From a bacterium (GTDB taxonomy: Bacteria > UBA10199 > 2-02-FULL-44-16 > JAAZCA01), in assembly GCA_021810905.1 (NCBI GenBank), contig JAJZQH010000003.1:1897-65896 (forward strand): 64,000 bases of DNA, written 5' to 3'. Position 1 is the first letter of the stretch; each line of letters starts with the position of its first letter. The position numbers and the translations under genes were made by a program. The notes under the pieces were generated by a model. The model saw only the letters and a program-made list of their open reading frames with translations, did no database searches and was not told the DNA's origin. Of the stretch, positions 3,001 through 35,671 are shown piece after piece.

Positions 3001-4178
3001 ATATCGCCCTCGGGAAGCATTCGCGCAAAATCGCCCGACCGATACATCCGCTCTCCGGGAACGAAAGGATCCGCGGAAAAGCGTTCCGCCGTCAGCCGCT
3101 CGTCATGGAGATATCCGCGTGATACCGCCGCGCCTGCAATATGGATCTCGCCCACTTGTCCGTCGGAAACTCGGAGTCCATCGTCGCCCATGAGATAGAT
3201 GCGCGTATTCGCAACAGGCTTCCCGACGGGGACATTCTCTCCGGGTTTGGGGCCGGTACGATAGCGATACGTCGTAGCGCAGATCGTCGTCTCAGTCGGA
3301 CCGTATGCATTGATGACGATCATTCGCTCATGCATGTCCTGATATCTTTTGAGGACTTCATCCCGGATCGGCTCGACGCCGACGAGAAGTTTTCGAAGTC
3401 GCAGCGTATCACGGGATCCGCTCAGAATCCTCGATACGTCGTCTATAAATCCAGGCGGAATGTACGCAAAAGTGACACCCTTCTCCCGAATCACATGGGT
3501 AAACTCCTCAACATCGTAGCATTGATCGTTCTTGAGCAGGATCAAACGCGATCCATGAAAAAGCGGGAGAAATATTTCGGCAACGCTCACGTCAAACGAG
3601 ATGCTGGCGCCGGCGAGAAAGACATCCGTTTCATCCAGGCGTCCTTCATAGACATCAGCCATGTGATGAATGAAGTTGGCGAGCTGGGCATGCTCGACCA
3701 TCACGCCCTTAGGCTTTCCCGTGGAACCGGACGTATATATGACATAAGCCAAATCGGACGGATCGGGCTGTACCTCCGGTTCCTCGATATCTCCCCGGAG
3801 GAAGAGGGAATCGTCCAGATCGATCACACGATATTCGTCGCTCCATTTCCACAAACTGCAGCTGCCGGACGTCATCACCACGCTCGATCCGCTCTCCTCC
3901 AGAATGCACTCGATACGCTTTCGCGGATTGGCGGAATCGAGCGGCAGATAGGCACCACCCGCCTTCAGGGCGGAAACCATGCCCACGATCATTTCGATCG
4001 ACCGATCGGCGACGATCCCTACGATTACATCGCGCCCGACGCCAAGCCCGCGGAGCCGATTAGCGATACGGCCCGCCCTCTTGTTCAACTCTCCATAGGT
4101 AATCCCTCGATCGCCGCACTCCACCGCTACGGCCTCGGGCCGCATCCTGCCCCACCTGCCGATAGCTTCAAACACCAT
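1..4178 (-). CDS. Non-ribosomal peptide synthetase, N-terminal part (A-T-C-T-C...), continues beyond the window start
   Basis: Absent from the ORF track because no stop lies in the window. My reverse-strand translation from ATG 4178-4176 reads MVFEAIGRWGRMRPEAVAVECGDRGITYGELN. The A3 core AYVIYTSGSTGKPKG is encoded at 3705-3749. Carrier-protein motifs DDFFDLGGHS have Ser codons at 2556-2558 and 954-956. Condensation His motifs are HHIIFDDRS (HH codons 2025-2030) and NHIIGDG (384-389). Plus-strand ORFs 252..1244 and 3141..4451 are antisense shadows. ATGA start/stop overlap with the upstream gene at 4178. Confidence 0.85.
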   Translation of the reverse strand, partial: MVFEAIGRWGRMRPEAVAVECGDRGITYGELNKRAGRIANRLRGLGVGRDVIVGIVADRSIEMIVGMVSALKAGGAYLPLDSANPRKRIECILEESGSSVVMTSGSCSLWKWSDEYRVIDLDDSLFLRGDIEEPEVQPDPSDLAYVIYTSGSTGKPKGVMVEHAQLANFIHHMADVYEGRLDETDVFLAGASISFDVSVAEIFLPLFHGSRLILLKNDQCYDVEEFTHVIREKGVTFAYIPPGFIDDVSRILSGSRDTLRLRKLLVGVEPIRDEVLKRYQDMHERMIVINAYGPTETTICATTYRYRTGPKPGENVPVGKPVANTRIYLMGDDGLRVSDGQVGEIHIAGAAVSRGYLHDERLTAERFSADPFVPGERMYRSGDFARMLPEGDIDFIGRRDDQVKVRGYRIELGEVEKCIAAYRGVKENVVVVNQTVHDEKTLSAYVVFDGDNRVTQLRRHMLEMLPRYMVPSRFVSLARLPRTIHGKVDRAALSEAVSEFHDEYEAPRSDVELRLADIWRQELGMECAGVRDDFFDLGGHSLIALRIVDRVRNEFGAEISIGDIFEHPCIAELARKIPADGVLTTSEINRTESRDSYEMSSSQRRFYLLQQLHPESTAYNIPLFYEILGDIDVPKLESSVLALIERHESLRTSFEVAHGNMLQRIHRSVPFRIDRIDGETRALQRFVRPFCLERAPLLRFALVEYDDGRKVLAMDVHHIIFDDRSAHVLFHDLDALYRGKILPETVFQYRDFSEHQRLRESTVKHAHEAYWSERCRDIEKTKSLPILGDQLSSFDCVEESIALDLDSGIAERLLRFAQEESATTYMVLMMALTVLLSRAAGGKDVTIGMPFTDRKNAEFDRVVGLFVNTLPLRFCMCSNLTWREFMRRVRGVILEGYDRSEYQFEYLVGRLYANGISTHAQLFDVMFGQVSHDFTHLFIGDASFKKIEGDFVSAKFPLALHVHDVERGLHLSFAFAPNLLSGATVRSYVSAFERIIMEILDYPDLRIGECGELNAALTCEGPIRPGEREGATRPRAGGRGAQDELENQLIEIWKRELGVEEVGIDDDFFDLGGHSMRAMQVMNAVNRIFHADLRIRTIYIHPTIASLAEMLRNRREGASRYIIRPASDCDRYDATIAQKRIWRRYREEPADASSNMVFTMHLDDNVEADVLQELLCLIVRRHESLRTSFEEEDGCVFQRIHETGRLHFRMVDLSNERGEKVATEFAALAAKEGDAAFALEEPSLFRAVMVQNGDVGSDLLFAMNHIIGDGWSLYNLKREIEAMLRSRHGGERFTPGLPSLQFRDYSEWHRRFLSDRRLIQPEIDFWRDALQKTELFIPSMPHDSEGGDVADRRTAQYRTVISQDVAHKLKALARENHSSLFMVLFAALFRLL

Positions 4179-5113
4179 CATAATGCGCCGCCCTTCGTGA
4201 CAGAAGTCTTCCCCTCACGATGCACGTTTGCAAAGATTTCGCCGATGATACCGAGGACTGAAGCGATGGTGATGTTGGAGACATCCAACGATGGGGCGAA
4301 TTCCACGATATCGAAGGCGCGCACTGAAATCGGAAGCGACTCGATCATCTTGAGGAGCACGCTTACCGGGATTCCGGCGGCCACGGGCGTTCCCGTTCCC
4401 GGAGCACAGGATGGATCGAGCACATCCACGTCGACCGACACATACAGATGATCGACACGGCGGGAGATATCTTCAACGCCTCGTCGAAATCGCTCCAGCG
4501 CACCAGTATCGAAGAGAAGTTCGTCTGAGGGCAGCTCGTGAATGCCCGTCCGCTTGATATACGGCATCTCCTCCTGTTCATACGCGCGCGTTCCCACCAG
4601 GAGGCAGTCGGTCGGCCTGATCTCCGTCGTTTCAATCGCGCGACGCAGCGCCGATCCATGTGAGAAAGAAAAACCATGATACGTATCGAGTAGATCGGGA
4701 TGCGCGTCGAACCAGATAACACCCGTCCTCCCTCGCTTCGCCACAGCCTTGAGGATAGGATGGGTAACGGAGTGATCGCCCCCTATGGACACAAGCGTTG
4801 AATCCGTCCCGTCAAGGACGGCGGAACAGCTGCATTCTATGGCGTCGAATGTCTTCATCGCATCGAAGGTGGAAACGTCAACATCTCCAATGTCGAGGAT
4901 CCGTATTGACGACAGGTCATCGCCGCGACGGGATGTCGATTTCAACCTCCCAGTCATGGATCGCACTCGCCCGGGCGCAAAAGCGGCGCCACGCTGGCCG
5001 CCGGCTCCTCCGTCGAATGGTATCCCGAGGATGAGCACGTCGGCATCGCCAGGGGAATTCGCTTTTGTCCCCACTCCGTTCCATGCGCCATATCCTTCGG
5101 ATTTTAAAAACAT
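4178..5113 (-). CDS. Arginase-fold ureohydrolase (agmatinase / guanidino-acid hydrolase-like)
   Basis: ORF 4178..5206. Arginase-family metal-binding motifs GGDHS, DAHPD and SVDVDVLDP. Start moved to ATG 5113 (MFLKSEGYGAWNG), preceded by AGGAGG. Its stop overlaps the NRPS start (ATGA). Confidence 0.8.
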   Translation of the reverse strand: MFLKSEGYGAWNGVGTKANSPGDADVLILGIPFDGGAGGQRGAAFAPGRVRSMTGRLKSTSRRGDDLSSIRILDIGDVDVSTFDAMKTFDAIECSCSAVLDGTDSTLVSIGGDHSVTHPILKAVAKRGRTGVIWFDAHPDLLDTYHGFSFSHGSALRRAIETTEIRPTDCLLVGTRAYEQEEMPYIKRTGIHELPSDELLFDTGALERFRRGVEDISRRVDHLYVSVDVDVLDPSCAPGTGTPVAAGIPVSVLLKMIESLPISVRAFDIVEFAPSLDVSNITIASVLGIIGEIFANVHREGKTSVTKGGAL

Positions 5114-5878: not shown

Positions 5879-7294
5879 TCAGATGGACCGACCAATATTC
5901 CTCTTCATCATTGTTGAAAATCGCGAAAGTCCATCCTTCCAGATTTCGAAAATCTCCTGCTCGTCGAGATATTCTGTTCTGGTCACGGATGGCTGATCTT
6001 CTCGCCAGCTGTCAAAGTTTTCGCCAATAATCGTCAAATGATAGCGTTCGAAATTATGGTAGAGGTCGGTCCCCGGATAAGGCGTCGTGATATAGTACTC
6101 CACGATATCCGCGAGCCCCTCTTCGAGCAGCTTTTCGGCATAGGCGATCGTCCGGTAGGCGGTATCCCTCGATTCGCCAGGCAGCCCAACCATCCAGTAA
6201 AGGAGGACATTCAGCCCGGCATCCTTGGCCATTTTACAGGATGCTCTGATCTGCTCGACTCGAATTCCCTTCCGGATGAGATCGAGTAATTCCTGGTTCG
6301 CACTCTCCGCGCCGTACTTGATGAGCCGGCAATTGCCCTCATGCATCTTTCGGAGGATTCGGGGGGTCACAAGATCGCAACGCGTCTGAGCGATCCATCG
6401 AAAACCCCGGTTCCGCATCTCCATTCCAAACTCCTCCACATAGGAGGGATTCGTCGTGAATGATTCATCGCCGACATAAAGCAGATCTATGTCAAAATAT
6501 TTTCGTAGAAGTTCCGCCTGCGTTACGGTTCGCTCCATACTCTGATACAACGGTTTTCTCCCCTTCCAGATCGTGTCCGCACAATACGCACAGTTATAGG
6601 TACAGCCCCTCGACGTATAGATCCGGGCGAAAGGAATCTGACCGCGATAGATGTCGTTCGGTATGAGATGATATGCCGGCATAGGGAGACGATCGGATAT
6701 GATCGCTTCCTTGCTGAATGGATTTACATTGATCTCACCATCACGTTTCCACGAGATTCCCGGGATACCTCTAAGATCTCCGCCATCATGGAGGCACCGT
6801 AATAGATCTGGCAGGATGAATTCGCCCTCCCCTCTCACAACGATATCGATATCCTCCTCTTCCAGGCATGAGCGATCCGTATAGGACACATGTGGTCCGC
6901 CAAGAACAACGAAGACATCTCGGCCCAGCACTTTTTTGACCAATCGGGAAACGCGAACGGCAACGCTGAAACTATTGGTAAAAGGCGACATGCCAACCAC
7001 ACGAGATGTGACCTGGCTGAGTTCCCTCGCAATGGCATCATAGTCGATGTCGCATCCGGAATAAGATGTGAGATCCAGGACATCTGCGGTCAAGCCTTCG
7101 TGCTCAAGGGTTCCCCCCAACGCGGCAATCCAAAGCGGGAGCTCCTTGATGTCGTAGATCGGGGCTTTTACGAATTTTCCACCGATTCTCCGTTCAAAGA
7201 AATCCCAGTAGACATCATAAAACGCGCTCTCCTCTTTATGAATGAACGGTTTCGCGATCAGCGGAAGCTGGATAAACGTAAAATCACTGTTCAT
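5879..7294 (-). CDS. B12-binding-domain radical SAM enzyme
   Basis: ORF 5879..7294. N-terminal Rossmann/cobalamin-binding-like part (VVGMSPFTNSF...VVLGGPHVS). Radical SAM cluster motif CTYNCAYC (CxxxCxxC). ATGA overlap with the hypF stop at 7291-7294. Confidence 0.8.
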   Translation of the reverse strand: MNSDFTFIQLPLIAKPFIHKEESAFYDVYWDFFERRIGGKFVKAPIYDIKELPLWIAALGGTLEHEGLTADVLDLTSYSGCDIDYDAIARELSQVTSRVVGMSPFTNSFSVAVRVSRLVKKVLGRDVFVVLGGPHVSYTDRSCLEEEDIDIVVRGEGEFILPDLLRCLHDGGDLRGIPGISWKRDGEINVNPFSKEAIISDRLPMPAYHLIPNDIYRGQIPFARIYTSRGCTYNCAYCADTIWKGRKPLYQSMERTVTQAELLRKYFDIDLLYVGDESFTTNPSYVEEFGMEMRNRGFRWIAQTRCDLVTPRILRKMHEGNCRLIKYGAESANQELLDLIRKGIRVEQIRASCKMAKDAGLNVLLYWMVGLPGESRDTAYRTIAYAEKLLEEGLADIVEYYITTPYPGTDLYHNFERYHLTIIGENFDSWREDQPSVTRTEYLDEQEIFEIWKDGLSRFSTMMKRNIGRSI

Positions 7295-16385: not shown

Positions 16386-17618
16386 TCAGCATCCGACCGG
16401 ACATCCGCATACTCCCGGCACGCTCGTGCCTGGCACACTCGTGTCGGGCGGGCATTGCGAATTCGAGGTACAGACCCCGCCAGTGTCGCAGTAGCAGGTA
16501 CAGTCTGTTCCGCCGGTGTTGCCTCCTGTATTGCCGCCGCCCGTGTTTCCGCCTCCACTGCCCGTGGATGCGGGGCATGCCCCCCAGGTGCAACCTGTAC
16601 CGCACTGTTTTGTGCCATCAGGATAGCAGGGCATGTACGAGCCCGGCGTGCACTGATAATCGTTCGGGCACGTGGGAAGTATTGCACCAGGACTGACGAC
16701 GCCGCTCTGTTGTAACGAGCCTGGTGAGATGTAAGTGTTTGCCATAGTGACGAGCCCGCTGCCGTCGTTCATGACCTGGACGGCGCTGTCGAGCGTGTTG
16801 CTGGATACATCAAGCGCCGCGCTCACGCAGGACCCCGCATCTCCGAGCGTGCATTTAAAGACGTCGACTCCCGTAAGAATGCTTCCGGCGTCCCCGAGAT
16901 TTTCGAGCCACGTCTCGTCGCCCATCACCACAGTTGCAGTCGTCACGATGACGCCGGCGCACGGAAGCGCCATTGCGCCGAGGGAGACTGTCGTGGCTAC
17001 ACCGCAGGCGCCTACGGAAATGCCCAGCCCCGCAAACTTGAGCAGCTCCGCGAGGTTTTTGACGTCGGAGTCGCAGGCCGGGAAGCAGGTCGACTTGGTT
17101 GAAGCCGAACTGCTGCTGACGGCACTGGCGCCACCGGCGCCGGTAATTAAGTTCGAGGCTTCCGCGGGAACGCTAACCCTCCTGAACACTTCTACGTAAT
17201 CTGTCGGAACGTAGATCTTCGCGATATCGACCGTCCCCGCGCTCAGGTCCCAGTTGGAGAAGAGAAGGATGAAGTCGCCCATGACCGTCCTGTAAGGCAG
17301 CCCGTCGGCGCCAAAGAAAACCGCCACATTGCCGCCCGTGGCGTTGGTCCAGAGTGCGCCCACAATCTTCTCGGTGGTTCCGCTGGAACCGGGAATCGCA
17401 TTGCTCACCAGCGGGAGGAGCATCTCGCCGTCTTTGTTCACCATAATCGCGCCGAGCGAATCTTTGCTCTGCATCACGGCCGCGACCTCGGGCGTATTTT
17501 CGTTGCTGCCGCTCGTACTCCCAGCGCTCCCGCTTCCGCTCGTTCCGCTGCCTACCGATATGCATGAAACGACAGACGGAAGAAAGCAGAGCATCATCAT
17601 AACCAGTATTTTTCTCAT
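16386..17618 (-). CDS. Cys-rich lipoprotein, unknown function (paralog of 52619..53983)
   Basis: ORF 16386..17618. Lipobox LPSVVSC and AGGAGGG RBS. Gly/Asn/Thr linker, then a Cys-dense C-terminus. It shares a near-identical 49-aa core with the 52619..53983 protein. Confidence 0.75.
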   Translation of the reverse strand: MRKILVMMMLCFLPSVVSCISVGSGTSGSGSAGSTSGSNENTPEVAAVMQSKDSLGAIMVNKDGEMLLPLVSNAIPGSSGTTEKIVGALWTNATGGNVAVFFGADGLPYRTVMGDFILLFSNWDLSAGTVDIAKIYVPTDYVEVFRRVSVPAEASNLITGAGGASAVSSSSASTKSTCFPACDSDVKNLAELLKFAGLGISVGACGVATTVSLGAMALPCAGVIVTTATVVMGDETWLENLGDAGSILTGVDVFKCTLGDAGSCVSAALDVSSNTLDSAVQVMNDGSGLVTMANTYISPGSLQQSGVVSPGAILPTCPNDYQCTPGSYMPCYPDGTKQCGTGCTWGACPASTGSGGGNTGGGNTGGNTGGTDCTCYCDTGGVCTSNSQCPPDTSVPGTSVPGVCGCPVGC

Positions 17619-17712: not shown

Positions 17713-19077
17713 CTATCTCTGCTTCGCGAACATCACCGGCACCTGTATGCCGCCGCCGCTCACGTTCACCTTGAAGCCGCGGTTGGTGGCGCGCGTGATG
17801 AATCCGCCCACGTTGAAGTTGGTGAAGCGCGCACCGTCCCAGTCGTAGTGGACGTAGACGCCGACGTCTGCAATCACGCGCCTGGGTCTGGAGAGAAAAC
17901 CTGCCACGTCAATCGTATTGAGATCGATGCGATCCTGGAGAACCCAGTACTTGTGATCTTTATGAAGTATGCGCGCGAGCCGCGCTGGAATTTTTTTCCC
18001 AACAAATACGTGCTCGCCTCCCATGCCATCAGCGTACTTGAGCACGAGCCTTGAAGGACGATGGAGCGCTTCTTCTTCGTTGCCTCTCAACAATCTCGCA
18101 GGAACGATCGTATCCGCGAGCCTCTCCGCGCGCGCCTCGCCTATGAGGCGCCTGAGAATATTTTTATCCTCGAGCACGGTGAGGATCGTCTTTGGCGCTA
18201 CGAGTCCAGTGATGAACGGACTGTAGTGAGGTGTCTCGGACCGCACGAGGTCGCGGAAGAATCCCGGGGCCTCTTTCAAATCTTTGAGTTCGAAGCTGTA
18301 CGAGAGCTGGAATGCATCCGGAGGCCTTGTATTTGCTCCGATCTGCAGCTTGCCATCCCTGAGACGGACGCATTCGCGCGAGAGGAGTTTGCAATCTTCA
18401 TCGAGCTTCACCTTGAAGGCGGATGGAGAGACGAGCCGCATGTCGAGTCCGATCGCGCGCGCCTTTTTAAGGATCACCTCCTCTTCCCAGTTGTACAGCT
18501 CGTACTGGAAGCGCACGAAACGCCTGCCGAGCCTTCGCATGTTGCGCACTTCGCTCGCGGCGGTATCGAGGCATATCACCTCGCGCCTAAGTATCGGAAA
18601 GAGCTTGAGGATCGTCTCTTGAATGAACGACGAGCGGCCGGTTCCGTCGAAGCCGATATCGTTCACCTCCATGAGCTTCGGCGGATTATCGGGACTGGGC
18701 TTTCCCACCACCGCCATATCGAATCGCAGGCTGCCGATGATGCGCCGCTTTCTGTGCTTGAGCACGCCGAGCTCGCGGATCATATACTCCGAGATAGGCG
18801 TTGGCGGCAGGAGTTCCCTGATCTCGTCGGAAGGCAGCGAGAGAATCCGCATGAGCGATTCGGTGATATCGCGACACGTGCGCCTTATGACCGGAAGATA
18901 CGACGCGGGAAGGATGCGCGGGAGCGCGGAACAATCGTGATCGTTGATGCCGATGAGCCCGGAATCCGCGAACTCGTTCCACAGCTCGGCCTTGAGAGCT
19001 CTGAGGTCGCGCTCCCTGAAGAGCCTCGCGAGCTTCGATGGAAGGGCCTCGTGAAAATGACGGTGTCTTGGAAACAT
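17713..19077 (-). CDS. Circularly permuted ATP-grasp-like (glutathionylspermidine-synthase-like) protein
   Basis: ORF 17713..19077. An E-x-N type motif (KLMEVNDIGFDG) lies in the N-terminal third. A K/G-rich nucleotide-loop-like segment (LVLKYADGMGGEHVFVG) lies near the C-terminus, the reverse of classical ATP-grasp order. Assignment is by motif order only. Confidence 0.45.
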   Translation of the reverse strand: MFPRHRHFHEALPSKLARLFRERDLRALKAELWNEFADSGLIGINDHDCSALPRILPASYLPVIRRTCRDITESLMRILSLPSDEIRELLPPTPISEYMIRELGVLKHRKRRIIGSLRFDMAVVGKPSPDNPPKLMEVNDIGFDGTGRSSFIQETILKLFPILRREVICLDTAASEVRNMRRLGRRFVRFQYELYNWEEEVILKKARAIGLDMRLVSPSAFKVKLDEDCKLLSRECVRLRDGKLQIGANTRPPDAFQLSYSFELKDLKEAPGFFRDLVRSETPHYSPFITGLVAPKTILTVLEDKNILRRLIGEARAERLADTIVPARLLRGNEEEALHRPSRLVLKYADGMGGEHVFVGKKIPARLARILHKDHKYWVLQDRIDLNTIDVAGFLSRPRRVIADVGVYVHYDWDGARFTNFNVGGFITRATNRGFKVNVSGGGIQVPVMFAKQR

Positions 19078-19174
19078 GGTGCAACGTATATCTCAACGGC
19101 GGAAATTTTTCACGGATTATCATAATATCAAAACGGGGCGAGTCACCAAGGTCATCCGCCGAGCGATTGCCTCG

Positions 19175-21808
19175 CTACAGCAACTCTCTCAACACGGAAG
19201 CATATGGACCTTTCGCTATCTTTTCGAGGGCCGAATGCGAGAGCCGCCGGATCCTTTCTTTGCTCAAGCCGAGCATGCCTCCCACTTCCTCATGCGTATG
19301 ACCTGCGAGGTGGCATTGGAGCACTATGATTTTTTCCCTGTCGCTCAATCCCGATCCCTCAATCGCCATGTCGAGTTTCGTGATGGCATCGCTTCGAAGC
19401 GCGAGATGATCCGGCCCGACCTCTCCCAAATCGGTCACCCGGCCTTCCAACGTGAAATCACCATCTTCTTCGTCCAGCGGCGCAGAGAAGGAGACTTCCC
19501 GCCTTGCTGCCGCTCCCCGCTGTATCATCATTTTAAAGAGCGTCAACGAGAGCGAACGCTTGACATAGGTCTCAAAACTCGCGATCGAGGGATCATAGCG
19601 TTGCGCCAGCTTGTGGAGCTCAATCCTTCCTGCCTGGAGAAGCGCCCCAAAGCTCATGTTCGCCCCGCCAAACCTTGTCATCACGGAAGAAGCAATGCCC
19701 GCCATCAACGGCTCATAAAAAAAGATCAGGTGATCGAGTGCCTGCCGGTCGCCGGACTTGGCCATCCAGAGGAGAAGCATCTTCTCACGCTGATCCAGAA
19801 ATATTCCGCCGCCGCTCCTTCGCTTTGTCGTTATCGTCGAATAGACGTCCATCCCATAGTGCGAAAACGCCCAATCGATCATCCGCCCTTCACTTTCTGA
19901 ACCGCGCCACAGATTGCGGAGATAACCATAGAGGCCCATCAATCCCGAGTTCCTCTCTCCAACATGCGAGCGAAAATCTCCCTGCACGATGCCAGCTGCA
20001 TCCTTTGCGCCCGCTTCGCACATCATTCCAGCGAGATAAAAAGCAATGACCGAATCAGGCACGCGGCGCCAGCCCGAGAGCTTCCCGCCTCTCCGCTCAG
20101 CCAGACGAAGCTGCAGCGCAAATGGCATTTCTTCGGCTGCGGATACACCACAATAATCCAGGATTTTATCGACTACCACTCTCGAATCGTCAGGTGTCTT
20201 CCTCAGACTAAAATGCGTGTAGAGACCTTTCAGCGATTGACCGATCTCCGGGACGACCGTACTCTCCATCTCGCGACAGGAAACAAACCTAACGTGAGGC
20301 AGGCCATTGAGTTCCTGCACCCTCTCCATAAGGCGCAGAATCGTCGCGAGGGGAACCTTCTCCCACGGCCAATTCCTGTTATATCGCAAACAGAGGCACT
20401 GTTGTTCGTAGGAAAGATCTTCAAACCTCTCAACTCCGAGTTGATCGAGCATGAAATCCAGCGCAGAACCTCCGTAGCCTTCCGGAACCCTGAGCCAATA
20501 ATGTTCAAGCAAGCCTGAGAGCGTCGCGCCGAGCTCATCGAGCACGATCTCATTCAGTTTCTTACCTGGCATCGCCCTCAGATGCGGACATTTCAAACCG
20601 TTCTGCTCGGGTAAGAGTCCTCTGGCTATCTCCAGCAGTTTCACCTGCGTGGAAGCAGGCATTCTTTCCCATTTTATGAGTTCGCACTCTAGAAGACCCT
20701 TCAGCTGCACATCCCAGGGAAGGATCTCAAATGACGGAACGCCCACATCATCAAGCAGTGCATCGATTATTCTGCGGGCCTCTTTTCCCCGGTTGAGATA
20801 ATTATTATACAGTCCAATCAGTGTAGAACTGAGTTCTGGCATTTCGATGTCCCTGAAGTGGTCGAAAGTCAAAAACCTCGGATGCACAACGCCAGCCTCA
20901 TTCGCCAAGCGAAAAAGCAGATGTCGCTTAAGCTCCACGCTAATTTTATCCCAGTGGATACGCTGATAACGCAGCCCGATGAATCTCGCCTGTTCCGCCA
21001 GAGACAATTCCTCAAACCTCTGCACTCCTAAATGATCGAGCATGAAATCCACGATCCCGCCTGCACCGTGTTCGTCCGTCCACATCCGAGAATAATGTTT
21101 GTAAAGCCCTTGGCACTGCGCTTTCCATCCCGGCAACCTCATTTTGAAATGATCGAATCCCAGCAGGCGAGGATGTGGCAGGTTTTGAACCAGCGCCATC
21201 TGCTCGAGTATTCTGACCTGTGCACTGAGAGAGAGATGAGAGACATTCTTAAAGGGAGCGGAATCAACCCGCAACCGGTCGATCTCTGCCTGAATGCGCA
21301 ACTCCTCCATGGGATGATACGTGTATCGAAAGGAGCCGAGTCCGCGGGTCCCGAATTTCAGGCAGATATCAGCTATGGAGACGCTTGCCCCCTCGATCAG
21401 CGCGAGCGCCGATGCGACGAGCATCTTTGCGGGTTCGAAAGAGAGTATTCCCAGGATATGGGCGTCATGCGCGATAATGATCGCGTGAGAGGGAGAGTCA
21501 AAGCCGTGGAGTTTGAGCGCATCGCGCGTCATCGGGCTGCTCTCGTCGACAAAACGCATTGCTTGCCGATCGAGCGCCCTCCGGATCTCGGCCGGCGTCT
21601 GCCGGTGTGATCCATCTCGCTCCCCGTATTCATCCGCGGACGACGGCGTTGCAGAGTGCTCTTCGGTGTCAACGCCGCAGGATTCAAGCTCCTGGGATTC
21701 GGCGCAGGGCGGTATCTCGTCGAGGGCAGCTGTCTCTTCAGCAAGGACTAAGCTCCCCAACAGCTCCAGCTGCGAAGCGAGGTCTCCTGTAGATTGCAGC
21801 GCGGCCAT
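19175..21808 (-). CDS. Giant sigma-70-family protein: ~690-aa N-terminal extension with five ~98-aa tandem repeats plus C-terminal sigma2/sigma4 domains
   Basis: ORF 19175..21808 with AAGGGGAGG RBS. The C-terminal ~185 aa carry region 2-like (YDPSIASFETYVKRSL) and region 4 HTH-like (LSDREKIIVLQCHLAGHTHEEVGGMLGLSKERIRRLSHSALEKI) sequence. Repeat anchors GLYKHY, GLYNNY, GLLEHY, GLYTHF and GLYGYL sit at residues 234, 332, 432, 528 and 625. Confidence 0.75.
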   Translation of the reverse strand: MAALQSTGDLASQLELLGSLVLAEETAALDEIPPCAESQELESCGVDTEEHSATPSSADEYGERDGSHRQTPAEIRRALDRQAMRFVDESSPMTRDALKLHGFDSPSHAIIIAHDAHILGILSFEPAKMLVASALALIEGASVSIADICLKFGTRGLGSFRYTYHPMEELRIQAEIDRLRVDSAPFKNVSHLSLSAQVRILEQMALVQNLPHPRLLGFDHFKMRLPGWKAQCQGLYKHYSRMWTDEHGAGGIVDFMLDHLGVQRFEELSLAEQARFIGLRYQRIHWDKISVELKRHLLFRLANEAGVVHPRFLTFDHFRDIEMPELSSTLIGLYNNYLNRGKEARRIIDALLDDVGVPSFEILPWDVQLKGLLECELIKWERMPASTQVKLLEIARGLLPEQNGLKCPHLRAMPGKKLNEIVLDELGATLSGLLEHYWLRVPEGYGGSALDFMLDQLGVERFEDLSYEQQCLCLRYNRNWPWEKVPLATILRLMERVQELNGLPHVRFVSCREMESTVVPEIGQSLKGLYTHFSLRKTPDDSRVVVDKILDYCGVSAAEEMPFALQLRLAERRGGKLSGWRRVPDSVIAFYLAGMMCEAGAKDAAGIVQGDFRSHVGERNSGLMGLYGYLRNLWRGSESEGRMIDWAFSHYGMDVYSTITTKRRSGGGIFLDQREKMLLLWMAKSGDRQALDHLIFFYEPLMAGIASSVMTRFGGANMSFGALLQAGRIELHKLAQRYDPSIASFETYVKRSLSLTLFKMMIQRGAAARREVSFSAPLDEEDGDFTLEGRVTDLGEVGPDHLALRSDAITKLDMAIEGSGLSDREKIIVLQCHLAGHTHEEVGGMLGLSKERIRRLSHSALEKIAKGPYASVLRELL

Positions 21809-21882
21809 GCCTCCCCTTATACGACGCCGCGGAGATATTCAACTACCCATTAAAAATTTCCCGTGCGACCGGTAGGAATTTT

Positions 21883-23403
21883 TCACGGATTATCGGAGCG
21901 CCGTCGTCGGAAATCCTCGAGAAATTCCGCTAGAGGCATTTTGAATTCGCCTGATCCGCCGTTCGCCATCGAGTTCCGCCACATCAATCCAGCAAGGCGC
22001 TGCTGAACGCCCTCGTCCTCTATGACGAGCGCTTCCAGGAGCAGGTTGCGACCGCCTTGCGCGCAGTTCGAGAGAATGAATAAGAGCGGGGCATCATTGC
22101 GCATTTCAAGACGTTCCCGCATCTTTCGCAGATTTGCGAGCAGCGAATTGAAAACCTTCACCGCATTCTTGTTGCCGATGAAGACAATATCGCGGTTCAT
22201 CAAACCGCCCAATCCAGGGGTTTCGCCGGTTTTCAGCCAAAGCTCAAGAGAGCAGCGAAAGCCGTGCTCCCCATAGACCGTCGCAAATCCGGGTCGCAGC
22301 TCAAAGCCCGCGTACCTCATCATCTCGAAGAGCGCTACGTGGAACCCTGGTCTCCACGTATCGTCATCAAAGACGATGAGCATGGAACCGCCTTCCGAGA
22401 TCCGCCTTTCGCATCCGCACAGGAGCTCATGCATCCTGGTGAGGTACATACGATCGAATGTGTGCAGGGGATCCATCTCCCAGTCCATCGCCTCAGGGTG
22501 TACCCACGTCACCAGATCAAAGGTCTCAAGAGAGTCGCCATCATCCGCAAGGCCCTCAATAAATCCGGATTGCACCATCCCACATCCGTCTCCGGCACGG
22601 ACCTGATGAATCTTTCCCTCAGGATCGTCCCCAAGAGCGCACTGAAACTCTTTGAGATTGATCCTGGCGCCCTCCAATTTCCAACTCAAGACATCAAATC
22701 CGATAGTCTTCACGAGACCCGGAAGCGCCAGTCTCATCCCCAAATTCTCGTACCATTTCCCCGCGCCGACCGAAAGTACGGTGCGCGCCTCACACTTCTT
22801 TCCGACTTCCTGATAGAGGAGTATTTGCGCGGTATCGTAATACAATCTTGGGACGAGTTCGTCGGCGCCTCCGCCATTATAGAAATGTTGATAGAGCCTC
22901 AGCAGATCATACCGCTGCGCAGCGACAAGCTGTTCGACCGAGAAGTGATCTCTGCTTGCAGACAGTGCCCGCGGCACTGAGTCCCTCAACTCGATATTTT
23001 TTTGAATCCATTGCGGGAGTTCAATGAGATGGTTCCCCGCAGCTTGCTGCGGGGTTTCCGCCACCATCTCCCTTGAGGGGAGAGGGAAGGGTGAGGGTGA
23101 TCGTCGATGTTGCCGGTGATACCCCGCGGCTTGCCGCGGGGAGCATTCATTTTCCGGAGCCGACTGTTCGCGATCGCGCGTGACTGGCAGTCGCGGAGTA
23201 ACCGGCCCAGGCGCGCCACGATATTGATCGCCAACCGCCACATATTCCGACGCCACGTCATTCAGGCATATACCCTGACGGGAATCGGGCAGCGGTATAA
23301 TATCATCGTCGCAGACCACGAACACTTCCTCTGCACCGGATTCCTCTGCAGGCAGCCCGTCTGCCGCGGCCATTACATCGAGATTTAACGGTTTTACGGT
23401 CAT
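21883..23403 (-). CDS. Hypothetical protein with class-I SAM-methyltransferase-like core; the ORF reads through a MITE copy
   Basis: ORF 21883..23403. Good RBS (AGGAGA) before ATG 23403. Rossmann MTase-like motif series VLSVGAGKW / IGFDV / FDLVTWVHP / ISEGGSMLIVF. Residues ENECSPRQAAGYHRQH...AAGNHLIEL are encoded by the repeat at 23021-23151. Confidence 0.5.
   Translation of the reverse strand: MTVKPLNLDVMAAADGLPAEESGAEEVFVVCDDDIIPLPDSRQGICLNDVASEYVAVGDQYRGAPGPVTPRLPVTRDREQSAPENECSPRQAAGYHRQHRRSPSPFPLPSREMVAETPQQAAGNHLIELPQWIQKNIELRDSVPRALSASRDHFSVEQLVAAQRYDLLRLYQHFYNGGGADELVPRLYYDTAQILLYQEVGKKCEARTVLSVGAGKWYENLGMRLALPGLVKTIGFDVLSWKLEGARINLKEFQCALGDDPEGKIHQVRAGDGCGMVQSGFIEGLADDGDSLETFDLVTWVHPEAMDWEMDPLHTFDRMYLTRMHELLCGCERRISEGGSMLIVFDDDTWRPGFHVALFEMMRYAGFELRPGFATVYGEHGFRCSLELWLKTGETPGLGGLMNRDIVFIGNKNAVKVFNSLLANLRKMRERLEMRNDAPLLFILSNCAQGGRNLLLEALVIEDEGVQQRLAGLMWRNSMANGGSGEFKMPLAEFLEDFRRRRSDNP
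23021..23151 (-). mobile_element. MITE/REP-like three-hairpin element, copy a (inverted, inside ORF 21883..23403)
   Basis: The reverse complement aligns end to end with copies at 46752, 52424 and 55828 (aatgaatgctccccgcggcaagccgcgggg...ccccgcagcaagctgcgggg..catctcattga). Confidence 0.8.
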
Positions 23404-23471
23404 ATATCTCCTGCCCTGACGACATGGACGTTATCGCAGAATTCCTGAAAAAGTTGCTCGATATTCGCACC

Positions 23472-23631
23472 CAAATCCGACACTTGAATTATCACTCAAA
23501 TCCTCCCTCCCTTGATGGGAGGGAGTTTGAGGGAGGGTGACCATGAAGACTTTCGTCACCCAAGGAATGAGTACCACCCTCTCCCTAACCCTCTCCCATC
23601 AAGGGAGAGGGAATTTTTTGTGTCGGATTTC
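23472..23631. repeat. Palindromic hairpin-cluster element bounded by an 11-bp inverted repeat
   Basis: AAATCCGACAC (23472-23482) pairs with GTGTCGGATTT (23621-23631). Internal hairpins are CTCCCTCCC-ttgat-GGGAGGGAG, GGGTGAC..GTCACCC and CCCTCTCCC-atcaa-GGGAGAGGG. It lies between divergent genes. Confidence 0.6.
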
Positions 23632-23695: not shown

Positions 23696-25210
23696 ATGAG
23701 CACTACATTCACTCCAGGTATCGGCGGTTTTCCCGGCGTGATTTCGCCGCAGGAAGGCGTGGATAGCGTCATCCTAACCTCTACGGGCGATTATGACTTC
23801 GCCTGCGAACGCCCGGCGGAGGATGCTGCCGGCGGAAATCTCGGACTCATCGCCATCGACCACGCGCTCGAAGATGCCGGATTTGATCCGGAAAAGATCA
23901 GCACCATCTATCGCGGGAAAAAACGCAGGCCTCATCTCGATACTGAACGTACGCGGATCGTGGAAGGAATGCGCGCATTGGGCGCCGGAGAAAAAGGCGC
24001 GGTCATAGGCATCTCCACCACGACCGACGAATATTTCAGATTTGCCCCGCTCGCAAAACTCCTCAGAATGGCGTTTCCGGACGCCACCCTCATCGCGGGC
24101 GGGGCGCACTTCGTGCGCGAGCGCATCGGCGGATTCGCGGACCCGGTAGAGACTGCGCTCATGATGGGGCTGGTTGACGCCGTTGTGGTGGGACACGCGC
24201 AGCCGTTCGTAGACCTGGTCGTCAAGCACGGAGGCAGAATCGAAGAGGTCGATGCGCCTGGCTTCTATCGGCTCGATCCTGTTTCAAAGCGCGTCACGGG
24301 TCGCGGCAAGGGGAAATTTCCCGACCTGAACAAACTCACTCTTCTCTACGATCCGGTGTCGATGGGCATCCGCACGATGCTCGCCGACGGCTGCAGAAAC
24401 GGCTGCAATTTCTGCACGGTGGCGGGCAGGCCGGTCGCGCTCTTCGATCCCGAGATCGTCGTCAGGGACTTAAGCGCCGCACTACTTGAGCATCAGGACT
24501 TTCGCATCTCGCTCTATGATTCCAATCCGCTCGAACCCGCGCTTCGGAATTTCTATCGCAGCGTCTTTCTGGCGCTTGATGAAACAAACCAGTCCCGAAA
24601 ATTCGCCTATATCGATCCTGCCACGCTGGCCCACGATTTTCTGGAATCTCTGAACACCATATCGTTCGGCACGATCTGGTCCTTCAACGCGGGCCGCGAC
24701 GCGGTAACCGAGAAGCAGGCACGCGCGATCGGCACGAGGTATAAAGGAAAATATAAGGACCAGCGGATGCTCGACGCGGAGAAGAAGGCGCTGATCGAAT
24801 TCATCGATGCCATGAAGATGCTGAAAAAGCTCTATCCCGAAGAGCCGCCGTTCGGCCTGATGCTCTCCTATATCGTGACGCCGTTTGAAACCAGGCAGTC
24901 GGCGATGGCGATGTACGAAGAGATGCGCGAGTTCCTGGCGCTGGCCGACAAATCGATCGTGTTCCGCTTCGCCGTGCATGCCCTCAGGCCCTATCCGGGA
25001 ACGACCCTCAGAAATAAATATTCGAGTGTCATCGACATGGAAGAATTCAATTTCCGCCTCGACCTGGGCGACAGGATCTCGCCGTGGAAGAAGGGCGCGG
25101 CCCCAGCCCTCGCCTTTCATCGTGCAGTGACGATGATTCCCCCGGTCAACGATCAGACAGACTACCTCAAGGCCTTCAAGCGCGCCATTAACACTCATCT
25201 TCCCCGGTGA
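23696..25210 (+). CDS. Radical SAM protein with N-terminal Rossmann/B12-binding-like domain (paralog 1)
   Basis: ORF 23696..25210 with GAGGAA RBS. CRNGCNFC (CxxxCxxC). Long blocks are shared with 31766..33244 (GGAHFVRERIGGFADPVE, GHAQPFVDLVVKH, AGRDAVTE, LSYIVTPF, PYPGT, ISPWK, C-terminal LPR). Confidence 0.7.
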   Translation: MSTTFTPGIGGFPGVISPQEGVDSVILTSTGDYDFACERPAEDAAGGNLGLIAIDHALEDAGFDPEKISTIYRGKKRRPHLDTERTRIVEGMRALGAGEKGAVIGISTTTDEYFRFAPLAKLLRMAFPDATLIAGGAHFVRERIGGFADPVETALMMGLVDAVVVGHAQPFVDLVVKHGGRIEEVDAPGFYRLDPVSKRVTGRGKGKFPDLNKLTLLYDPVSMGIRTMLADGCRNGCNFCTVAGRPVALFDPEIVVRDLSAALLEHQDFRISLYDSNPLEPALRNFYRSVFLALDETNQSRKFAYIDPATLAHDFLESLNTISFGTIWSFNAGRDAVTEKQARAIGTRYKGKYKDQRMLDAEKKALIEFIDAMKMLKKLYPEEPPFGLMLSYIVTPFETRQSAMAMYEEMREFLALADKSIVFRFAVHALRPYPGTTLRNKYSSVIDMEEFNFRLDLGDRISPWKKGAAPALAFHRAVTMIPPVNDQTDYLKAFKRAINTHLPR

Positions 25211-31765: not shown

Positions 31766-33244
31766 TCATCGCGGCAGGTAGCGGAGGATCGCGTCCTCAA
31801 AGTGCGGCAGATAGTCGTCGAGCCTCATCGGCGCGTCGCGATGTGTGACCTCGCGCATGAACCTGAGCGAAGGGCAGGCGTCTCTCTTCCAGGGCGAGAT
31901 GCCGACGCCATCGTCGCGGTCAAAGTCAAAATCCTCCAAGTCGATCGCGTCCGCGAGCCGCGCGCGCAGCGCCGTTCCCGGATAGGGCATGAGCGCCTGC
32001 ACCGAGAGGCCCACCTCCATTTCCGGCGTCGAGAGATCGAGAAACTCCCGCATATCGTCCAGCATCGCCAACGCGGAATCGCGCGTCATAAAGGGCGTTG
32101 TGATATAGGAGAGCGTGAGTTTCCGGGGGACGGCGGCGCTCGCCTTCCGTCGGCGCAGAAGCATGGCTCCGATGAAATTGCGCAACGCGGTTTTCTCCTC
32201 GTCGAGCGTGTGCTGATCCTTGATCTTTCCAAGGTATTTCGTCCCGATCACCCGCGCGTCCTCTTCCAACACGGCGTCACGGCCGGCGTAGAAATACCAG
32301 CAGCCGTACCTCTCAGCTCTCTCGACGACGCGATAAAAATTCTTCAGGAGCGCCGACGGATCGAGATAGACCGCCTTGAGCGAGCGATCCTCGCCTTCAA
32401 TCCTGTCGAAAATTTCGCGATAGAAGTCGTCGAGGTGCGGTAAGAACGGATTGGAATCCGTGAGAGAGAACGTGTGCACGCCCTCCCGGAGCATGGCCCC
32501 GAGCCCACACGCCACGATGTCAACCGTCAGATTCGGAGGCCGTCTCCCCGTGATGAAGCAGAAGTCGCACCCGTTACGGCACTGATCTGCAAGCATCGTG
32601 ATCACCTCTCCTTCGCCCGCGTCACCGCTGGAGGGGAGCCTCCCGACGCGAGGATAGAACCCTGTGCCGCGGCCCACGACCTTGTGATATACAGGATCGA
32701 GCTGATAAAAGCCGGGTGTCGTGACATCCTCTCTCCTGCCCCGGTGCTTGACGACGAGATCCACGAATCCCTGTGCATGTCCGCACACTGCCGCATCGGC
32801 CAACCCCATGCCGAGCGCCGCCTCGACCGGATCCGCGAATCCGGCGATCCGTTCGCGCACGACGTGCGCTCCGCCGAGGACGATCTGGACGCCGGGAAAG
32901 GCCCGCCTGAGCAGCGGCGAAAGCACGGCAAGGACGTGGTAACGGCTCGATGTCGTGGAGATGCCCATGACCGCGCCCGACTCCGCGGCGCCCGCGCTCC
33001 GGAACGCATCGACGACGGCGCTGCTGCCGCCGGAGAGGTCATAGGGCCGGGATGCGTGGGGCTTCAGGATCACGGCGTCTTTGAACCCCTCAGTGATCAG
33101 GGCCTCTTTTATGGTTTCGAGCCCGAGGTGTTCGGAGGCGGCATCCGCGGGCCTCGCAGGGTCCAGCTCAAAATCGCCGGTCGAGGCGAGGATCACCGAA
33201 CTCACATCCGGCTGCGGCATGATGATGGCAGGGGCCATGGGCAT
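31766..33244 (-). CDS. Radical SAM protein with N-terminal Rossmann/B12-binding-like domain (paralog 2)
   Basis: ORF 31766..33244. CRNGCDFC. Collinear similarity to 23696..25210 along the whole length. Same C-terminal LPR. Confidence 0.7.
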   Translation of the reverse strand: MPMAPAIIMPQPDVSSVILASTGDFELDPARPADAASEHLGLETIKEALITEGFKDAVILKPHASRPYDLSGGSSAVVDAFRSAGAAESGAVMGISTTSSRYHVLAVLSPLLRRAFPGVQIVLGGAHVVRERIAGFADPVEAALGMGLADAAVCGHAQGFVDLVVKHRGRREDVTTPGFYQLDPVYHKVVGRGTGFYPRVGRLPSSGDAGEGEVITMLADQCRNGCDFCFITGRRPPNLTVDIVACGLGAMLREGVHTFSLTDSNPFLPHLDDFYREIFDRIEGEDRSLKAVYLDPSALLKNFYRVVERAERYGCWYFYAGRDAVLEEDARVIGTKYLGKIKDQHTLDEEKTALRNFIGAMLLRRRKASAAVPRKLTLSYITTPFMTRDSALAMLDDMREFLDLSTPEMEVGLSVQALMPYPGTALRARLADAIDLEDFDFDRDDGVGISPWKRDACPSLRFMREVTHRDAPMRLDDYLPHFEDAILRYLPR

Positions 33245-33806: not shown

Positions 33807-35480
33807 TCACTGCACGTCGTCGATCGTCTGGATCGGGATCGGGGTGAATGATATCGGCGGCGATGTCAGTTTGTAATCGCTCAGGCAGCTCCAGACCTCC
33901 GGCCGATCGGGAAGTACGTTCGCCGGCGGCAATATATATGGGGAGTTCAGATTGAGAGCCGGTTCCTGTCCCTGCATCTTGACTATCGGCAGGTTCTTCT
34001 GAAGCAATAATTTATATGCCCAATTCGGAACGGAATTAATTTTTTTGGCTGCCGGCTCGAGTGCCACGTTCTGGTTCAGGAGTTGCACCCTCTCTAACAG
34101 TTTTAAAAGTAAATATTTGTGCGGCAGGCAGCCATAGTGAACGAGGTCACTGCCATCCACGAAGATGTCGTGAGGCTGAGGCACATAAACAGCGTAATTC
34201 TTAGCACCTGAATAGACCACGATTGCGGGAATATTGATGCTGCGCAACATATGCGCGAGGAAATGGCTGGACGTTGCGTCGTCTCCTGCTCGCATGGCGA
34301 AAACGAGCTCAAGAGGGGCGTTCAGCGCTCGATCATCCGGACTTGCATACTTATTACTCTGATCAGCGCTATAGTTGCCGCTCTTCTGCACTTGCGAGCA
34401 GTAACTCCTGCCAGGATTGAACTGCTTATATTCCGGCGATATACCCACATAATAGCCGGAATCGGTCATCGTAATATCACCGCCTTGCCCGTGAAGAGCT
34501 ACCTGCGGGTCCACCCATGTGACCTCTTTTTCGATGATGCCCCTTGCGGTCGCGATCACCGGATCTTGCTGATTCAACGCACTGAGCGTCACGGGGAATA
34601 TCTTGTAGGTGTTGAAACCAGCGCCGCGGCAGACCCAGGAACCTTCATCGCTGGTGAATTTCGTATACAGTAGATCAGGCAGTCCAATCACCTTCTTTGA
34701 AGGAATCTGCTTGTTCCACTGATATCCATCGGGGATATTGTTGAAGAAGAAATCGACGAGAGTTGGGTCCCACGTCTTGATAGACCATGGCAATATGACC
34801 GCAGCCTCGACCCAGAACGCGTGTACGATAGAGACGATCCGCTGCCTGCACATCATGTCCTCGGTTCCGCACTTGGCGTCCAATGCCGCGTCGAATGCCG
34901 CTTGTTTGTCACTCGCCTTGTCGAATGGGTTGTACGTGAGGAACAGATCGCGAACGAGATCCAGCGTGCCTTCGGAAGTCAGTTGGGCCTTGAGATTGCT
35001 GAGATTGGAATAAGCGATGATTTCATCAAATTTGCCGTTCATCCACGCATCGTGATCCGCGGCAACTGCCTCAGGTCTGATAAACGCATTCCCCTGATTT
35101 TGCTGGATGAACTGGGCATAACCAAGATTGATTTTGTTGAACGAATGTATTGACGGCGGAGTGACGTTCACCTGCTGATCCACGCAGTGGTTATTCGCAT
35201 CGCATACCTGAGGAGCCGTGCACGTTCCGCACGAGGCGATCGTGCCGCCGCATTCGTCGGGAATATTGTCGCCGCACGTATAGCCCAGGTCCGCGCAGGT
35301 CTTTGGCACGCAACTCTCTGTGGGCGCCGGAGTGGCTTCAGGCAGTTCGCTCACGGTCGGCTCGTTACCAGCGCCGGCAGGCGTTCCCTCCCCGCCGCCG
35401 CTGCAGCCGATCACACCGGCTACGACGAGCGCGATGCAGATGATGAGTGAACCAGCGTATATTGAATATAGTTTCTTCAT
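33807..35480 (-). CDS. Lipoprotein with N-terminal Cys-rich repeat, otherwise unknown
   Basis: ORF 33807..35507. Start moved to ATG 35480 (MKKLYSIYAG...VIGCSGG lipobox) behind AGGAGG. Cys-rich module CVPKTCADLGYTCGDNIPDECGGTIASCGTCTAPQVCDANNHC. Confidence 0.7.
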   Translation of the reverse strand: MKKLYSIYAGSLIICIALVVAGVIGCSGGGEGTPAGAGNEPTVSELPEATPAPTESCVPKTCADLGYTCGDNIPDECGGTIASCGTCTAPQVCDANNHCVDQQVNVTPPSIHSFNKINLGYAQFIQQNQGNAFIRPEAVAADHDAWMNGKFDEIIAYSNLSNLKAQLTSEGTLDLVRDLFLTYNPFDKASDKQAAFDAALDAKCGTEDMMCRQRIVSIVHAFWVEAAVILPWSIKTWDPTLVDFFFNNIPDGYQWNKQIPSKKVIGLPDLLYTKFTSDEGSWVCRGAGFNTYKIFPVTLSALNQQDPVIATARGIIEKEVTWVDPQVALHGQGGDITMTDSGYYVGISPEYKQFNPGRSYCSQVQKSGNYSADQSNKYASPDDRALNAPLELVFAMRAGDDATSSHFLAHMLRSINIPAIVVYSGAKNYAVYVPQPHDIFVDGSDLVHYGCLPHKYLLLKLLERVQLLNQNVALEPAAKKINSVPNWAYKLLLQKNLPIVKMQGQEPALNLNSPYILPPANVLPDRPEVWSCLSDYKLTSPPISFTPIPIQTIDDVQ

Positions 35481-35671
35481 GGCAATCCTCCTGGGCAAAA
35501 ACTTCACAATGCTTATAATACAGCAAAGGACGTGCCATTGCGGCAGAAAAAAAAGACAACTGTAATATCAGCAGGTTGTAGAACTCTCGACCCTGGCGGG
35601 ATCACCATCAAATTGAGAATCAGGGCTGCCGGCATTGGATTTTTGACTGATAAATCGGACCGCTCTTCGCC

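Follow-up and report, generated by a model that had tools for sequence, protein, structure and literature searches.

The stretch of DNA analysed here (the window) comprises 64,000 nucleotides (nt) of contig JAJZQH010000003.1 (positions 1,897 to 65,896) in the bacterial assembly GCA_021810905.1. Its minus strand carries a gene for an 877-residue sigma-70-family protein, with an ATG start and a AAGGGGAGG Shine-Dalgarno sequence, in which an ordinary sigma core is preceded by an N-terminal array of five copies of a helical domain; the array is new, rare and strongly constrained. A first-pass annotation, made from the letters alone, had proposed this open reading frame (ORF), its extent and its family, and all three are borne out. 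An identical protein (P0001) is encoded in the metagenome-assembled genome (MAG) GCA_027327785.1. The parts of the protein and the other features of the window are listed in Table 1.

The C-terminal part of the protein is a sigma factor with sigma2 and sigma4 folds. The NCBIfam sigma-70 superfamily model TIGR02937 matches residues 690-866 with 56.6 bits (cutoff 42.9; model positions 2-163 of 165), and Pfam Sigma70_r4 (PF04545) scores 48 bits against a gathering threshold (GA) of 24.1. Failure of the region 2 and region 4 profiles, which the annotation had named as grounds for dropping the sigma assignment, was thus not seen. Its description of the last ~185 residues as a minimal sigma factor stands on these two models and on the fold tests, whereas Pfam Sigma70_r2 taken alone remains below threshold (15.7 bits, GA 24). 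Residue-level alignment to SigA recovered the motifs of regions 2.1-2.3 (LLQAGRIEL and FETY) and the helix-turn-helix of region 4.2, and the C-terminal tail typical of primary sigma factors also aligned. The LxQxG core-binding motif of region 2.2, the aromatic residues of region 2.3 and the helix-turn-helix of sigma4 were all present. The linker between the two domains had been called short and acidic. It is acidic, but it aligns to residues 235-260 of T. aquaticus SigA and so corresponds to region 3.2, with the sigma3 domain (regions 3.0/3.1) deleted; its predicted local distance difference test (pLDDT) score is below 50 over residues 765-804. Sigma3 (Pfam Sigma70_r3, PF04539, a block of about 50 residues) is missing from the window protein and kept in 5 of 12 orthologs, from which it follows that the family descends from group-3 stock and that the window member lost the domain.

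The protein is an alternative sigma factor from group-3 (FliA/WhiG/SigB-like) stock. No subfamily cutoff was reached: FliA_WhiG (TIGR02479) scored 33.2 bits against a cutoff of 189.6 and SigBFG (TIGR02980) 26.6 against 234, FliA/WhiG being the best scorer among the subfamily models that match both halves of the sigma module. Extracytoplasmic function (ECF) sigma factors are a poor fit, Sigma70_r4_2 scoring 16.1 bits (GA 25.7) whereas Sigma70_r4 scores 48; orthologs carry sigma3, and the likeness to ECF factors goes no further than a sigma2 and a sigma4 domain with no sigma3. No match to regions 1.1 and 1.2 of group 1 (Pfam Sigma70_r1_1 and r1_2) was found at E <= 0.1.

Five repeat units precede the sigma module. 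They occupy nt 19793-21244, in agreement with the ~19829-21241 given by the annotation, and the GL[YL] anchors lie at residues 234, 332, 432, 528 and 625, exactly where it had placed them. Units were cut at the conserved tryptophan that opens each. A hidden Markov model (HMM) of the family repeat detected exactly five units in the protein, at E values of 1e-23 to 1e-32; neither the leader nor the sigma part yielded a further one. Pairwise Smith-Waterman comparison of repeats 1-4 gave z = 12-19 against shuffled sequences; repeat 5 is detectable against repeats 1 and 2 only (z about 6), with z <1 against repeats 3 and 4. No DNA-level tandem repeat was found in the gene, and the duplication is therefore ancient.

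The units are constrained individually. Across the 12 orthologs, pairwise identity is 48-57% for repeats 1-4 and 40% for repeat 5, against 43% for sigma2, 45% for sigma4 and 32% for the linker. Each repeat shares 42-57% identity with its ortholog and only 14-35% with paralogous units, so each position of the array has a conserved role of its own. By family mean net charge, repeats 1 and 5 are basic and repeats 2-4 neutral to acidic. A model of a single unit (repeat 4, from a 47-unit alignment) gave a pLDDT of 92.9 and a predicted template modelling (pTM) score of 0.82; its fold has five helices, the second and third of which are separated by a short hairpin. In the full-length model, confidence stays high over the boundaries between repeats 1 and 2, 2 and 3, and 3 and 4, and falls at residues 575-577, between repeats 4 and 5; the model suggests that repeats 1-4 form one continuous rigid body, to which repeat 5 is hinged, and that repeat 5 abuts sigma2.

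Repeat 3 stands out by its cysteines (3.2 per unit, versus about 0.5 in the other repeats) and is the only unit with an invariant C-P-H-x-R ... Q-C-x-C signature. About 17-18 of 20 members of the wider family retain it, and in one member the CxC pair provides the sole cysteines of the whole protein. This Cys3-His cluster may be a candidate metal or redox site, or mere core packing. It differs from the zinc-binding anti-sigma (ZAS) signature: HxxxCxxC / zf-HC2 gave no Pfam match, and repeat 3 has C-P-H ... C-x-C instead.

The repeat is a ~95-residue helical domain of a previously undescribed family. No Pfam or NCBIfam model, those of TPR, HEAT, ANK, PPR and TALE repeats included, matched residues 1-672, or the repeats of the other repeat-bearing proteins scanned; PHROGs and PADLOC gave no repeat match; all comparisons of the repeat profile with PDB sequences had E > 1; and the fold of the unit showed no significant similarity to PDB structures or to viral predicted structures. 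The alternative raised at first pass, that the repeat maps to a known family, thus found no support in these collections. Derivation from a degenerate sigma domain or from the accessory region (residues 71-188) was rejected, with hhalign probabilities of 0.4% and 1.4%. A phage origin was likewise discarded, since no relative occurs on viral contigs and neither PHROGs nor BFVD gave a match. So was a defence system: the sigma factor has no PADLOC hit, and the helicase fusions described below match only the generic MkoA helicase core. Literature searches found no description of a sigma factor joined to such an array, and within the window the sigma ORF alone carries the repeat.

The region ahead of the array had been described as an acidic leader of ~190 residues. 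This holds for the first 70; the rest consists of a near-neutral helical domain and a capping helix motif. The acidic part shows 29% pairwise identity among orthologs and is absent in 4 of the 12. The accessory domain has a pLDDT of 70-84 and 47.5% identity among orthologs, and hhalign found no relation between it and the repeat or sigma domains. The capping motif (family form RYTYHPxEExRIQxEIDRL; 53% identity) precedes repeat 1 in every member, with invariant T163, E169, R171, I172, E175 and I176 and a predicted helix at residues 166-181.

Table 1. Features of the sigma gene, its product and the surrounding DNA; positions are those of the window unless a locus is named.
Feature	Position (nt)	Strand	Residues	Remarks
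Whole sigma-70-family ORF	19175..21808	(-)	877 aa	Stop codon 19175-19177
Acidic leader	21599..21808	(-)	1-70	Variable, predicted disordered; net charge -14, pI 4.1
Helical accessory domain	21338..21598	(-)	71-157	Near-neutral; in closer orthologs only (8/12)
Capping motif	21245..21337	(-)	158-188	RYTYHPxEExRIQAEIDRLR; helix before repeat 1
Repeat 1	20957..21244	(-)	189-284	Family mean net charge +2.4
Repeat 2	20675..20956	(-)	285-378	Unit missing in P0012
Repeat 3	20369..20674	(-)	379-480	Best-conserved unit, 57% identity; C407-P-H409-x-R and Q470-C471-x-C473
Repeat 4	20075..20368	(-)	481-578	Modelled on its own
Repeat 5	19793..20074	(-)	579-672	Divergent, basic (family mean +4.7); abuts sigma2
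Sigma domain 2	19514..19792	(-)	673-765	Regions 1.2-like to 2.4; LLQAGRIEL...FETYVKRSL
Linker	19397..19513	(-)	766-804	Acidic, predicted disordered; homologous to region 3.2, without sigma3
Sigma domain 4	19178..19396	(-)	805-877	Region 4.1/4.2 helix-turn-helix and C-terminal tail like that of primary sigmas (PF04545, SigA alignments)
ORFan	21883..23403	(-)	506 aa	74 nt upstream of sigma, co-oriented; no Pfam, NCBIfam or PADLOC family
Promoter-like motif	23431..23457	(-)		GCAACTTTTT-N10-GCGATAA; 27 nt upstream of the ATG of the 506-aa gene
Motif sites elsewhere	L005 9940-9966; L006 3255-3281; L013 10622-10648; L003 3284-3310, 4726-4752; L004 6608-6634
Direct repeat, copy A	19097..19121	.		54 nt past the sigma stop, 26 nt upstream of the 454-aa ATP-grasp-like gene
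Direct repeat, copy B	21870..21894	.		68 nt before the sigma ATG; overlaps the 506-aa gene at its stop codon
Predicted secreted protein or lipoprotein	16386..17618	(-)	410 aa	Co-oriented with sigma
B12-binding/radical-SAM-type proteins	5879..7294	(-)
	23696..25210	(+)
Palindromic elements, GGGAGGG/CCCTCCC-rich	23498..23616			42-nt arms, 81% complementary
Related copy	23063..23088			Inside the 506-aa gene
ORFs without Pfam family	3141-4451, 21883-23403, 31766-33244, 33807-35507, 48162-50009, 52619-53983, 54301-55677		430-615 aa

The full architecture was found in 12 clusters at 90% identity among 5.8 billion proteins, every one from MAGs, and is as unusual as the annotation had supposed; the N-terminal extensions of ECF sigma factors have been called rare and short (PMC7826278). 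The species-representative genomes that carry it are labelled Margulisiibacteriota, WOR-1, Saganbacteria, 'Bdellovibrio sp.' or unclassified 'bacterium'. The ABC-F protein of the window genome has named relatives at <=60% identity only, all 'Deltaproteobacteria' groundwater MAGs, and the lineage is deep-branching, and the ATP-grasp neighbour has relatives in Bdellovibrionota-type MAGs. Based on these labels and relatives, the family spans at least two distant phylum-level groups. A scan of metagenomes added one new family locus only. In one MAG labelled 'Bdellovibrio sp.' two full-length paralogs, P0007 and P0002, lie in tandem with overlapping stop and start codons (L003 7254-10001 and 9998-12766). 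A complete short variant, P0021 (419 aa; L019 3995-5254, on a 226-kb contig), has the cap motif and three repeats fused straight to sigma4, without sigma2; a three-mismatch copy of the promoter motif described below lies 12 nt upstream of it.

The repeat itself is more widespread than this architecture. A repeat-unit profile searched against 1.84 billion representative proteins matched 88, about 40 of them linked to sigma factors of three types and 6 being superfamily 1 (SF1) helicases. The core sigma family described above accounts for 14. A second family of 21 members has a tail of ~200 residues that aligns to the entire sigma2-sigma4 module (hhalign 89%, E 2e-6) and whose top PDB match is RpoS (E 0.002), and 5 further proteins have a detectable sigma-like region, two of them with ECF-type r4_2 tails above the gathering score (P0054, P0079). 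The six helicases (P0023-P0026, P0037, P0053) are Upf1-like (AAA_11/AAA_12), with the repeats making up the N-terminal half and a helicase core that resembles Mokosh MkoA; the context of one of their genes (L010 6001-9426) looks ordinary chromosomal. The remainder of the 88 are repeat-only proteins, fragments and giants of up to 6,478 aa. Two of the giants contain several repeats and an embedded ECF-like sigma segment, at residues 5118-5290 of P0079 (5714 aa; r4_2 40 bits, above GA) and 2465-2641 of P0045 (6142 aa), followed in both by hydrophobic, membrane-like stretches. In four other large repeat proteins (P0036, P0040, P0042, P0048) no Pfam domain reached significance.

A candidate promoter was detected upstream of the sigma gene and of some of its homologs. 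The bipartite motif G[AC]AA[CT]TTT-N13-[CT]GA[TA]AA occurs at 9 sites in 579 kb (the window and the homolog loci), where shuffled sequences predict 0.04, and an ORF starts 6-50 nt downstream of all nine. In three distant genomes it stands, in the form GCAACTTT-N13-CGATAA, at the start of the sigma gene or of the operon to which that gene belongs. The L005 site lies 7 nt before the sigma gene and is identical to the window site in its 10- and 8-nt blocks and their spacing; the L006 site lies 9 nt before the gene, and L007 has a two-mismatch copy at the same place. When the motif was derived from L006 and L008 only and one mismatch was allowed, four matches were obtained in 519 kb of other sequence, two of which were the L005 sigma start and the transcription unit of the window; the number expected was 0.002. 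When the window site was left out of training, a weight matrix gave it 25.5 bits, the highest score anywhere in the window, whereas shuffled sequence reached 18.9 at most. The second-best match, at 16.5 bits and within noise, lies 9 nt upstream of a 492-aa ORFan (31766-33244). The motif resembles the sigma28 consensus, TAAAGTTT-N11-GCCGATAA, which the L006 site matches at 13 of 16 positions. A scan with the canonical FliA consensus showed no enrichment, so the label 'sigma28-like' is one of resemblance only. Generic sigma70 promoter and terminator scans around the sigma gene stayed at chance level. As the motif heads the sigma gene or unit in the window and in two very distant MAGs, positive autoregulation is the simplest reading, by which the motif would be the family's own, probably cognate, promoter.

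In this genome alone, the sigma transcription unit likely begins with the 506-aa ORFan, which is not kept beside any sigma homolog at the loci compared. The next gene past the sigma stop codon encodes the 454-aa ATP-grasp-like protein. The sigma gene is precisely flanked by the two copies of a 25-nt direct repeat with an 18-nt exact core (GATAATCCGTGAAAAATT, minus strand). None of the other loci compared has this repeat, and the intergenic RNA that contains it folds in no unusual way (z 0.02). The repeat may be the scar of an insertion, or a regulatory element common to the two intergenic regions. It suggests that the sigma gene was inserted between the genes on either side, but synteny in sister genomes is too poorly conserved to bear on this. 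Long plus-strand ORFs antisense to the sigma gene (19964-20518, 21032-21610 and 19076-19900) were rejected as genes, their tblastn matches in homolog loci being shadows of sense-strand conservation. No Rfam RNAs or tRNAs were found in the window.

Further along the minus strand, downstream of the sigma and ATP-grasp-like genes, the predicted secreted protein or lipoprotein has Gly/Ser/Thr-rich low-complexity stretches and a Cys-rich C-terminus and lacks a family match. The window contains two proteins of B12-binding/radical-SAM type; the plus-strand one is divergent (its B12-binding match reaches just 19.6 bits) and its gene is transcribed divergently from the unit of the 506-aa and sigma genes. 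Within the divergent intergenic region, upstream of the promoter motif, lie the GGGAGGG/CCCTCCC-rich palindromes, which look like repetitive extragenic palindromic (REP)-like elements. The window is also unusually dense in ORFs of 430-615 aa without a Pfam family. In the two closest relatives an ORF6N (KilA-N-like) gene lies upstream of the sigma gene (L012 3896-4426; L013 7611-7823), immediately so in L013 and 3.5 kb off in L012; it is absent from the window. No neighbour gene is conserved in 10 loci, those of the closest relatives included, and therefore no dedicated anti-sigma partner is encoded in the neighbourhood.

The first-pass annotation had suggested that the extension could be a built-in anti-sigma, a sensor or a DNA-scanning module. 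We tentatively favour the view that the array is a built-in cis control or docking module of the sigma factor, and would put this at somewhat less than an even chance. It is proposed because no neighbour is conserved, because repeats 1-4 are more conserved than sigma2 and sigma4, and because the domain has been joined to at least three sigma lineages. The array would bind a partner or ligand, each repeat showing its own conserved surface, and binding would set whether, or where, sigma2 and sigma4 engage core RNA polymerase (RNAP) and promoters. By analogy with the extensions of some ECF groups, it would stand in for a separate anti-sigma factor. The sigma gene and the upstream ORFan would be expressed from the sigma28-like promoter, with positive autoregulation. 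Since the repeat is also found on helicases and in repeat-only proteins, its generic activity is likelier to be binding a partner than inhibiting sigma, and gating of sigma is more likely a consequence of partner binding in the sigma context.

Several observations weigh against a cis control module. Contact between the array and sigma2 or sigma4 is hypothetical, and the pTM of the whole protein is just 0.51. SF1 helicases and repeat-only proteins carry the repeat but contain no sigma that could be gated, so autoinhibition cannot be the generic function, and a docking or adaptor role fits better. C471 and C473 of repeat 3 lie in a predicted helix, where side chains at i and i+2 diverge, a less than ideal geometry for a shared metal site. 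The promoter could also be read by canonical FliA instead of the window sigma factor. Taken together, the evidence leans to a cis control or docking module and slightly against a DNA scanner that reads sequence, and decides neither.

The array could instead be a DNA- or RNA-binding module of TALE/PUF/PPR-like kind that extends or redirects promoter recognition and targets helicases likewise, an explanation which we regard as unlikely but by no means negligible. Nearly all fusion partners of the repeat are nucleic-acid machines (three sigma lineages and the Upf1-like SF1 helicases), and repeats 1 and 5 are basic; yet repeats 2-4 are neutral to acidic, the positions are conserved orthologously and lack the hypervariable specificity residues of programmable arrays, and the nine promoter sites share no conserved DNA block past the -35/-10 elements in the 90 nt upstream.

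It is rather improbable that the array is a docking or localisation scaffold that does no sensing and tethers sigma factors and helicases to a large cellular machine, perhaps RNAP itself or a membrane or cell-pole structure. Such a role would suit the predicted rigidity of the body of repeats 1-4, with its high confidence across unit boundaries, and the presence of the repeat inside giant proteins of 2,000-6,500 aa, in two of which hydrophobic, membrane-like stretches come after an ECF-like sigma segment. Among SF1 helicases, UvrD and HelD are examples that associate with RNAP. This case is, however, purely circumstantial; a sigma factor already binds RNAP via sigma2 and sigma4, and no partner gene co-occurs nearby.

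We also doubt that the promoter belongs to canonical FliA (sigma28), in which case the gene would be a late member of the motility regulon and the array irrelevant to promoter choice. Bdellovibrionota are typically flagellated, and the likeness of the motif to the sigma28 consensus, with 13 of 16 positions at the L006 site, is what that assignment draws on. Against it, the seven other genes that follow the motif are ORFans, with no flagellar gene among them and no match to a Pfam family, the scan with the literature consensus was not enriched, and the top rank of FliA/WhiG among the both-halves models makes a similar specificity of the sigma factor's own plausible. A chimeric or mis-assembled ORF, or a decaying gene with a non-functional N-terminal part, is hardly credible: all sequences come from MAGs and no isolate carries the architecture, but more than 12 assemblies, independent of one another and drawn from different studies and phyla, share the full-length architecture, the repeats are under stronger constraint than the sigma core, the reading frames are intact and the folds are confident.

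Among known systems, FliA/WhiG (sigma28) is similar in its sigma2 and sigma4 folds, the FETY-type region 2.3, the sigma3 domain kept in some orthologs, the best both-halves profile (TIGR02479), the presence of FliA among PDB sequence matches and the sigma28-like promoter before the gene. The window sigma factor is nevertheless no member, at 33 bits against 189.6; it lacks sigma3 and has a ~670-aa N-terminal extension that no FliA carries, no FlgM-like anti-sigma is encoded nearby, and the genes behind the motif are not flagellar. ECF sigma factors can be regulated by their own extensions without anti-sigma genes, C-terminal ones in ECF41/42 and N-terminal ones in ECF121 BldN and ECF36 SigC (PMC7826278). 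They share with the window protein the layout of sigma2, linker and sigma4, the want of a dedicated anti-sigma gene nearby and a cis domain as presumed regulator. The window protein differs in coming from sigma3-containing stock and in matching r4 instead of r4_2, and the known ECF N-terminal extensions are short and free of repeats, whereas its own runs to ~670 aa and contains a new domain five times over.

Primary sigma factors (E. coli sigma70, M. tuberculosis SigA), with their region 1.1 and N-terminal extensions, likewise place an acidic disordered tail ahead of sigma2, at a site compatible with autoinhibition, and the C-terminal tails are similar. The window protein has no r1_1 or r1_2 match, however, and its acidic tail varies between orthologs, 4 of the 12 having none. 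What is conserved is a folded array of five domains, which the RNAP channel is far too small to accommodate. Cyanobacterial sigma factors with accessory NB-ARC, TPR_MalT or DUF6596 domains have been described (PMC11119718), and these also combine a sigma core with a terminal accessory or repeat domain and are rare and lineage-restricted. Their domains belong to known families, whereas the window repeat matches none and recurs on several sigma lineages and on helicases. Like TPR/HEAT/Sel1 and TALE/PUF/PPR arrays, the repeat forms tandem all-alpha units in a rigid array and is fused to diverse effectors; its unit is a self-contained domain of ~95 aa with five helices and a hairpin (pTM 0.82), in contrast to their 30-40-aa hairpin, and no sequence or fold match links them. 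A bolder proposal, to which we give a small chance, is that the ~95-aa unit represents a modular repeat of a new class, serving to target the transcription and nucleic-acid machinery, that was combined with at least three sigma lineages and with Upf1-like helicases in independent events. It would read a feature of nucleic acid or dock on RNAP, as a second specificity determinant in addition to the -35/-10 elements, switchable via the Cys3-His cluster of repeat 3.

To our knowledge, sigma factors are among the best-catalogued bacterial regulators, and large folded N-terminal additions to alternative sigma factors are essentially undescribed. The system lends itself to experiment: the protein is defined, residues 672/673 offer a clean truncation point, and GCAACTTT-N13-CGATAA is a candidate cognate promoter for in-vitro transcription. 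A domain family absent from all libraries searched, which in repeats 1-4 outdoes the sigma core in conservation, is carried by several unrelated sigma lineages and by helicases. This pattern implies that there is some general means by which nucleic-acid machines are controlled or targeted in groundwater phyla without cultivated members (Margulisbacteria and Bdellovibrionota-like lineages).

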